A DNA stretch of 64,000 bases. It comes from Escherichia coli O157:H7. GTDB lineage: Bacteria > Pseudomonadota > Gammaproteobacteria > Enterobacterales > Enterobacteriaceae. The notes beneath the pieces were generated by a model. It was not told the origin of the DNA. It searched no databases and saw only the letters and a program-made list of their open reading frames with translations. This document shows, in pieces, positions 55,999 to 58,698 of the stretch. Every line of letters starts with the position of its first letter. Within the stretch, counting starts at the first letter, position 1. Made by a program: the position numbers and the translations under genes. The stretch lies in NCBI RefSeq assembly GCF_013167455.1, contig NZ_CP038328.1. One strand, given 5' to 3'.

Positions 55999-56289
55999 TT
56001 ATTTTCTGTTGCTATTCCATTCCTCCCAGGTCGTGATGGTGATTTCAGGATCTTTGCCGGTTGCACTTTGGGTAAGCCCCGAAACCAGTTCTCTAATTTC
56101 TTCTTCACTTTGGGTACTGATAAGTCCAAAAGTGTTAGTCCCCAGCTCATGGATATTTCCCTCATCATCCGTCATGGTGAGCAAAAAACCGTCGCGAGTC
56201 AGGTAATTATTCAACTCGTTAATTTCAGTCAATGTATCCTCATGCAACATGACGGTTATGACATAACGGACAAGATCGCCACTGGCCAT
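55999..56289 (-). CDS. ydiZ: small protein of unknown function
   Basis: 96-aa ORF MASGDLVRYVITVMLHEDTL. Confidence 0.75.
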   Translation of the reverse strand: MASGDLVRYVITVMLHEDTLTEINELNNYLTRDGFLLTMTDDEGNIHELGTNTFGLISTQSEEEIRELVSGLTQSATGKDPEITITTWEEWNSNRK

Positions 56290-57605: not shown

Positions 57606-58364
57606 ATGAAGCTTTTGAAGACAGTTCCTGCCATCGTTATGTTGGCGGGGGGCATGTTTGCGTCACTGAATGCAGCTGCCGATGATTCCGTTTTTACTGT
57701 CATGGACGATCCTGCCAGCGCTAAAAAACCTTTCGAAGGTAATCTGAACGCAGGGTATCTTGCACAATCAGGCAATACGAAAAGCTCCTCACTTACGGCT
57801 GACACCACCATGACCTGGTATGGACAAACCACTGCCTGGTCGCTGTGGGGGAACGCCAGTAATACTTCTTCTAATGATGAGCGTTCTTCAGAAAAATATG
57901 CGGCGGGCGGGCGTAGCCGTTTTAATTTAACTGATTATGACTATTTATTTGGTCAGGCAAGCTGGCTGACAGACCGTTATAACGGCTATCGAGAGCGCGA
58001 TGTGTTGACCGCGGGTTATGGTCGTCAGTTTTTGAATGGCCCGGTACACAGTTTCCGCTTTGAATTCGGTCCAGGTGTGCGTTACGACAAATATACCGAC
58101 AATGCCAGTGAAACTCAGCCGCTGGGCTATGCCTCCGGTGCTTATGCATGGCAGCTTACTGACAACGCTAAATTTACGCAGGGTGTTTCCGTCTTTGGCG
58201 CGGAAGACACAACGCTGAACTCCGAAAGCGCATTAAATGTTGCTATTAATGAGCATTTTGGACTGAAGGTGGCTTACAACGTCACATGGAACTCTGAACC
58301 TCCAGAGTCTGCACCGGAACATACCGACCGTCGGACAACCTTATCGCTGGGCTACAGCATGTAA
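57606..58364 (+). CDS. ydiY: outer-membrane beta-barrel protein (DUF481)
   Basis: 252-aa ORF with signal peptide and C-terminal aromatic residue pattern. Confidence 0.8.
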   Translation: MKLLKTVPAIVMLAGGMFASLNAAADDSVFTVMDDPASAKKPFEGNLNAGYLAQSGNTKSSSLTADTTMTWYGQTTAWSLWGNASNTSSNDERSSEKYAAGGRSRFNLTDYDYLFGQASWLTDRYNGYRERDVLTAGYGRQFLNGPVHSFRFEFGPGVRYDKYTDNASETQPLGYASGAYAWQLTDNAKFTQGVSVFGAEDTTLNSESALNVAINEHFGLKVAYNVTWNSEPPESAPEHTDRRTTLSLGYSM

Positions 58365-58416
58365 AATTATCTGCCGGACCGTGTTATGCGGTCTGGCTGT
58401 CTTCGTTTGTCACTGC

Positions 58417-58524
58417 TCAGCCCCAAATCATTGCTGCCCAACGTAGCAACAACATAGCGCCACAGATTGCCAGTAGCACCACCACCATCTTCCAGTGTTT
58501 TTTATCAAAGCGTTTAGTCGGCAT
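58417..58524 (-). CDS. yniD: small single-pass membrane protein (35 aa)
   Basis: MPTKRFDKKHWKMVVVLLAICGAMLLLRWAAMIWG, the C-terminal 35 codons of ORF 58417..58635. Confidence 0.6.
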   Translation of the reverse strand: MPTKRFDKKHWKMVVVLLAICGAMLLLRWAAMIWG

Positions 58525-58698
58525 ACCAGTGTCCTGCATATCTCTTGTGCGTGATAACGGAGTGTAACAAAAGGGACAGGCATCAAGGGATTTTTTGTTA
58601 TTACAGCCGTCGGGTGGCGTTGTACACCTGATCACTGTTTCTGCGTTTTATGAAAAAATAAAATTATGTATCGATATATAAATATCGTAAATAGCTGG

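Follow-up and report, generated by a model that had tools for sequence, protein, structure and literature searches.

yniD of Escherichia coli O157:H7, a catalogued small membrane protein gene next to ydiY, and its predicted promoter

Identity of the gene

It is highly probable that the 35-codon reading frame next to ydiY is yniD, a genuine coding gene translated from the ATG of those 35 codons. The coding sequence for MPTKRFDKKHWKMVVVLLAICGAMLLLRWAAMIWG, followed by a TGA stop, is located at 58524 to 58417 on the minus strand of the window (the whole analysed stretch of 64,000 nucleotides) and is supported by the mechanical ORF list, RefSeq, the NCBIfam model NF041491.1 and the pN/pS ratio. 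The RefSeq CDS WP_001142445.1, annotated as “small membrane protein YniD”, occupies 3118–3225 of the extracted locus L001. Position 3001 of this locus is position 58300 of the window, so the CDS coincides exactly with 58417–58524. The preliminary description had taken the same coordinates for a tiny single-pass membrane protein gene, and the RefSeq annotation bears this out.

The NCBIfam equivalog NF041491.1 (“membrane_YniD”) matches the product with 85.7 bits (cutoff 40, E = 1e-24) over its full length, model positions 1–34 of 34 being aligned to YniD residues 2–35. The exact 35-aa sequence is named YNID_ECOLI in UniProt and is found on at least 1000 contigs. Distant members carry the Pfam label PF28032 “YniD-like” in precomputed annotations. 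The 35-aa YniD gave no match in the Pfam-A copy that we searched, so this copy evidently predates the family.

The K-12 MG1655 counterpart is b4535 (YP_588455.2, located at 1805165–1805272). The 108-nt gene and about 100 nt upstream of it are identical in the window and in K-12, as are the protein (100% identity) and the position beside ydiY. The two differ in the upstream neighbour, which is the pseudogene arpB in K-12 and an intact espL1 in the window. E. coli O157:H7 PV15-279 matches the window at 100% identity. A megablast search with positions 58300–58750 of the window found the yniD region in 5416 of 5426 complete E. coli genomes, and all 25 rows sampled across the ranking carried the annotation “yniD: small membrane protein YniD”.

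yniD is thus already known and is no discovery: it is a catalogued E. coli gene for a small membrane protein. It has long been present in the K-12 annotation as b4535, has NCBIfam and Pfam families of its own and is called correctly by the current NCBI pipeline. What our analysis contributes is support from sequence comparison for the 35-codon start, a predicted conserved extended -10 promoter and an invariant C-terminal RWAAxIWG signature.

Genomic neighbourhood and distribution

ydiY (57606–58364, plus strand) is convergent with yniD. Upstream of yniD lies the type III effector gene espL1 (58699–60597, minus strand), which is intact and codes for 632 aa. The gene had been placed between ydiY and arpB; this holds for ydiY, while the other neighbour is espL1, since arpB is the name of the K-12 pseudogene of espL1. 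Frameshifted or truncated espL1 is also found in BL21(DE3), SCU-313, SK1144 and F11.

yniD is located between ydiY and thrS, and the lineage of the window has espL1 added between yniD and thrS. Comparison of 58525–61119 of the window with loci L002, L005, L007 and L063 shows that espL1 is an insertion into the ancestral layout pfkB< ydiY> <yniD thrS>. Citrobacter, Enterobacter, E. whittamii and atypical E. coli (E69, SCPM-O-B-8794) lack the insertion, and in these genomes yniD is divergent from thrS at a distance of about 300 bp. Homology between the window and the insertion-free loci stops about 50–60 nt upstream of the yniD ATG. Beside pfkB, at about 55999–56289 on the minus strand of the window (L001 700–990), RefSeq annotates a [quoted passage not shown].

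The distribution of yniD was followed in 80 loci anchored on ydiY, one genome per species. A full-length YniD frame was found just downstream of ydiY in 45 of them, belonging to Escherichia, Citrobacter, Enterobacter, Lelliottia, Leclercia, Yokenella, Trabulsiella, Huaxiibacter and Pseudenterobacter. Within 2.5 kb of ydiY, no yniD was found in Salmonella enterica subsp. arizonae and diarizonae, Klebsiella, Raoultella, Kosakonia, Phytobacter, Franconibacter and Siccibacter. The loci lacking yniD (L019, L020, L062, L066, L068, L069, L071–L074 and others) retain ydiY, pfkB and often thrS. Presence of the gene within the family is patchy. The Lelliottia, Enterobacter and Leclercia loci in which yniD is located near locus positions 3900–4070 have about 500–600 bp of extra DNA between ydiY and yniD. 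In this extra DNA, locus L022 contains a 77-aa ORF (3526–3759, plus strand) with a signal-peptide-like N-terminus (MNKIKNAAAAMVLSALSFGVFAADS...).

Searching 1.84 billion cluster representatives with a profile gave only 29 hits at E <= 0.001. Many of them are over-extended or frameshifted gene calls and a few are genuinely divergent members, all of which retain the C-terminal LLxRWAAxIWG/A signature. In the public protein entries P0034, P0036, P0038, P0039, P0048 and P0057 a frameshift cuts YniD short or an unrelated tail follows its C-terminus; such entries look like artefacts of assembly or gene calling and not like variants. The distant PF28032 members occupy unrelated gene neighbourhoods, and no neighbour gene conserved across the whole family was found. 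One divergent 34-aa YniD-like gene, MAKVIGKKYGKMILVLVLICLGLLLLRWAAMIWG (L087–L089, 4001–4105, plus strand), is flanked by a DUF6388 gene on one side and by the convergent gene of an AraC-family regulator on the other, with the flagellar genes fliDST, fliE and fliF nearby.

Selection on the coding sequence

Among 42 distinct coding sequences, the pooled pN/pS was 0.128 in the yniD frame against 0.27–7.0 in the five other frames, and variable columns at codon positions 1, 2 and 3 numbered 18, 9 and 31. For 44 syntenic loci, drawn from about ten genera of enterobacteria, mean ungapped pairwise identity was 0.79 within the coding sequence and 0.26–0.40 in the 60-nt flanks. Because of the low pN/pS, the excess of third-position variation and the contrast between the coding sequence and its flanks, the alignments point to strong purifying selection on a protein whose boundaries are those of the 35 codons.

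Sixteen of the 35 columns are invariant in 29 distinct orthologues: M1, P2, R5, K9, W11, V14, L17, C21, A23, L25, R28, W29, A30, A31, W34 and G35. The N-terminus is conserved as M-P-(T/S), the C-terminus as ...RWAAMIWG and the length is about 35 aa. The 35-aa frame with its ATG and an immediate stop is present in 40 of the 45 complete loci, and in four of the 45 the frame continues at least one codon beyond G35. In Citrobacter sp. NCU1 (L024 3429–3533, minus strand) the ATG is replaced by ATT. In C. youngae ATCC 29220 (L008, near 3428–3499, minus strand) only residues 12–35 align and the N-terminus is disrupted. These two Citrobacter genes are possibly pseudogenes or sequencing errors.

Protein features and expression

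The basic N-terminus and the single transmembrane helix of the preliminary description were both recovered. Residues 1–12 include five K/R, one H and one D (mean Kyte-Doolittle hydropathy -2.1), and residues 13–35 are hydrophobic (mean +2.1). AlphaFold, run on a 29-sequence alignment, predicted a single helix covering residues 5–34 with a mean pLDDT of 83. In Table S1 of PMC10470546 the TMHMM prediction for YniD is N-in/C-out with the transmembrane segment at 13–32; the column for experimentally examined orientation is blank there. Single-pass N-in/C-out proteins are marked by a single hydrophobic helix, about 20 residues long, and a net positive charge at its N-terminal side. Both features are predicted for YniD, and the protein is predicted to form one N-in/C-out membrane helix. 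One-sided conservation of this helix was considered and is unsupported, the conservation moment along it being 0.15–0.17. No relative of the family was found in the PDB, so YniD has not been met as a subunit of a solved complex.

YniD is reportedly among the small proteins confirmed by chromosomal SPA-tagging by Hemm et al. in 2008. Its detection by mass spectrometry in M9-grown cells by Treitz et al. (2016) is reported in PMC12529367. In a Ribo-seq study (PMC10746267) yniD is listed among the “previously known sORFs” and had no significant acid response. The HA-MBP-YniD fusion is scored “-” for cleavage by RseP (S2P) in Table S1 of PMC10470546, indicating that YniD is not an RseP substrate in that screen.

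Predicted promoter and probable terminator of yniD

A predicted extended -10 element, TGTTACACT, is located at 58561–58569 on the minus strand. It is invariant in Escherichia, where the invariant upstream block reads CTTTTGTTACACT. In 41 of 44 loci the ATG is preceded, at a distance of 37–46 nt, by the motif TG[T/G/A]TA[C/G/A]ACT, in surroundings that are just 33–40% identical. The distant homologue of loci L087–L089, which has a different genomic context, is preceded by TGATAATGT about 40 nt upstream of the gene. The block fits the extended -10 consensus, which is TGnTAnnnT. We infer from these alignments that TGTTACACT is the extended -10 promoter of yniD, which would place the transcription start near 58554 and give a 5' untranslated region of about 30 nt. 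No conserved -35 was seen upstream of yniD.

The TAnACT hexamer resembles the -10 elements favoured by sigma-S, and this is only a resemblance. Sigma-S promoters favour C at -13, and the yniD element has another nucleotide in this position. A search for a regulon assignment found no yniD entry in the iModulon supplements searched. By our coordinate conversion, genomic SELEX peaks assigned to the thrS–yniD interval presumably fall within arpB, the pseudogene, at a distance of more than 1 kb upstream from yniD. Listed as “thrS < > yniD” in PMC5493296, these peaks were rejected as evidence for a yniD promoter, since such a position makes them uninformative.

The convergent genes ydiY and yniD are separated by a GC-rich hairpin (58373–58397, not assigned to one strand) that has an 11-bp stem and is bordered on either side by U/T-rich runs. 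The terminator scan matched this hairpin on the plus strand. On the yniD strand the region folds with -16.3 kcal/mol (z = -2.7) and is followed by AGAUAAUUUU. The hairpin is probably a terminator common to ydiY and yniD and used from both sides.

These features bear on the strongest of the competing explanations, by which YniD would be a peptide that damages the membrane like the type I toxins Hok, Ldr, TisB or DinQ and is held in check by an antisense RNA. YniD is indeed small, hydrophobic and single-helix, is of similar size and was screened alongside such toxins in PMC10470546. However, its gene is single-copy, keeps the same syntenic place in about ten genera and evolves under strong purifying selection, and its annotation is “small membrane protein” and not toxin. 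Rfam families overlapping the locus and antisense promoters over yniD were both looked for and not found, and the predicted leader is short with an exposed Shine-Dalgarno sequence instead of long and structured. The hallmarks of type I toxin-antitoxin loci, an antisense RNA gene and a multi-copy or patchy pattern, were not found at yniD. We regard a toxin as improbable.

Start codon and over-extended frames

In the mechanical ORF list, yniD is the C-terminal half of a 72-aa ORF (58417–58635, minus strand). The first codon of this ORF is GTG and not the Met codon that had been implied earlier. An in-frame ATG five codons upstream of the 35-codon ATG gives a 40-aa version. The in-frame extension (58525–58635, minus strand), which yields 72 aa from the GTG at 58635–58633 and 40 aa from the ATG at 58539–58537, was judged non-coding.

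Of the three candidate starts, only the 35-codon ATG has a Shine-Dalgarno sequence: AGGA at 58532–58535 (minus strand), about 7 nt upstream. Pairing with the anti-Shine-Dalgarno gives -4.0 kcal/mol here, compared with -0.7 at the 40-aa ATG and +0.2 at the 72-aa GTG. Purine-rich AGGA, AAGGA or GAGGG occupies the same position in the orthologous loci. The ATG itself is retained in 44 of the 45 loci, the exception being the Citrobacter gene with ATT. This comparative evidence agrees with the 35-codon ATG having been proposed as the true start.

A longer real product, either of 72 aa with a Cys-rich N-terminal extension before the transmembrane helix (GTG at 58635) or of 40 aa (ATG at 58539), is very unlikely, more so than the toxin. 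In its favour, all six E. coli strains that were compared have 41 open codons upstream, and both forms are deposited as proteins, the 40-aa one on 934 contigs and the 72-aa one on 84 under the name “transmembrane anchor protein”. The extension contains four cysteines and has a sub-threshold Pfam “zf-like” match (E = 0.062, 13.7 bits, cutoff 27). espL1 is on the same strand with no predicted terminator before yniD, so read-through transcripts could carry the GTG. On the other hand, the extension sequence is unconserved outside E. coli proper: in most genera it is closed by stop codons 1–25 codons upstream, and where it is open the sequence is unrelated. Neither alternative start has a Shine-Dalgarno sequence, the GTG lies upstream of the conserved extended -10 element and the NCBIfam model matches the last 34 residues only. 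The upstream DNA is lineage-specific, having come with the espL1 insertion, and the open 41-codon extension in E. coli fits such a recent origin.

With its GTG upstream of the promoter element, no Shine-Dalgarno sequence and stop codons outside E. coli proper, the 72-codon frame is an annotation artefact. The 40-aa and 72-aa forms in the databases are over-extended and limited to the espL1-carrying lineage of E. coli. The expectation that automated pipelines may over-extend the gene holds: over-extension is real in older or other pipelines. The current RefSeq annotation is right, and the current PGAP neither missed nor over-extended yniD in 25 sampled genomes.

Dozens of ORFs of 20–40 aa are present near yniD in the mechanical list, so a 35-codon ORF alone is not above chance; conservation places this one above it. 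That the frame is a chance ORF or a regulatory upstream ORF with an irrelevant peptide has the commonness of such short ORFs in the region in its favour, but with 16 of 35 columns invariant, a pN/pS of 0.13, mass-spectrometry detection of YniD as reported in PMC12529367 and no same-strand downstream gene (ydiY being convergent), we give it practically no weight, and judging by the substitution pattern it is already refuted.

Proposed mode of action

It is proposed that yniD has an extended -10 promoter of its own, located about 40 nt before the ATG, and a leader of about 30 nt. Translation would start at the AGGA-preceded ATG at 58524, and the transcript would end at the hairpin common to the convergent ydiY. 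The K/R-rich N-terminus (residues 1–12) would remain cytoplasmic, the helix would span the membrane from residue 13 to about 32 or 34, and the last one to three residues would reach the periplasmic face.

A protein of 35 residues fits as a whole into the ribosomal tunnel and would be released before its helix emerges, so its insertion would have to be post-translational. Such insertion through SRP was shown for the 27-aa YohP (PMC7549839), and YniD may follow the same route.

Once inserted, the helix would pack against a larger inner-membrane protein, as those of MgrB, AcrZ, MgtS, CydX or KdpF do. By analogy with these proteins, we consider such packing the most likely mechanism, with a probability approaching but hardly exceeding an even one. 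The contacts would be made by the invariant V14, L17, C21, A23 and L25 and, in the outer leaflet, by the C-terminal R28-W29-A30-A31-x-x-W34-G35. Since no neighbour is conserved family-wide, gene context gives no clue to the partner.

A more specific proposal, which we put forward tentatively and rate below the packing mechanism as such, is that YniD serves specifically to modulate an inner-membrane protein from within the membrane and is restricted to Enterobacteriaceae and a few relatives. It would dock via the invariant C-terminal R-W-A-A-x-I-W-G and the mid-membrane C21, and its expression would be driven by a conserved extended -10 promoter that needs no -35 and has a sigma-S-like TAnACT. 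If this is true, YniD would be a regulator tuned to stress or stationary phase. The regulatory role attributed to YniD in the preliminary description is an assumption. A partner or a phenotype for YniD would be a modest but real advance.

Comparison with known small membrane proteins

The closest parallels among characterised small inner-membrane modulators of E. coli are the pairs MgrB–PhoQ, AcrZ–AcrB, MgtS–MgtA, CydX–cytochrome bd and KdpF–KdpABC. Like YniD, these small proteins have fewer than 50 aa, a single transmembrane helix and a small transcription unit of their own, and YniD is listed beside modulators of the MgrB/AcrZ/MgtS type in Table S1 of PMC10470546. However, none of MgrB, AcrZ, MgtS, CydX and KdpF is homologous to YniD in sequence. 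MgrB in addition has a periplasmic domain, whereas YniD consists almost wholly of an N-terminal tail and a helix.

YmiA (46 aa) has a superficially similar layout, with a basic N-terminus, one transmembrane helix and a W-G ending (...IWKVWG). Its homology to YniD was rejected at an hhalign probability of 0.9%.

YohP and YniD have no sequence similarity, but both are too short for co-translational targeting, and the same insertion route can be expected for them. They differ in topology: dual topology has been reported for YohP, while the strong positive-inside bias of YniD favours the N-in orientation.
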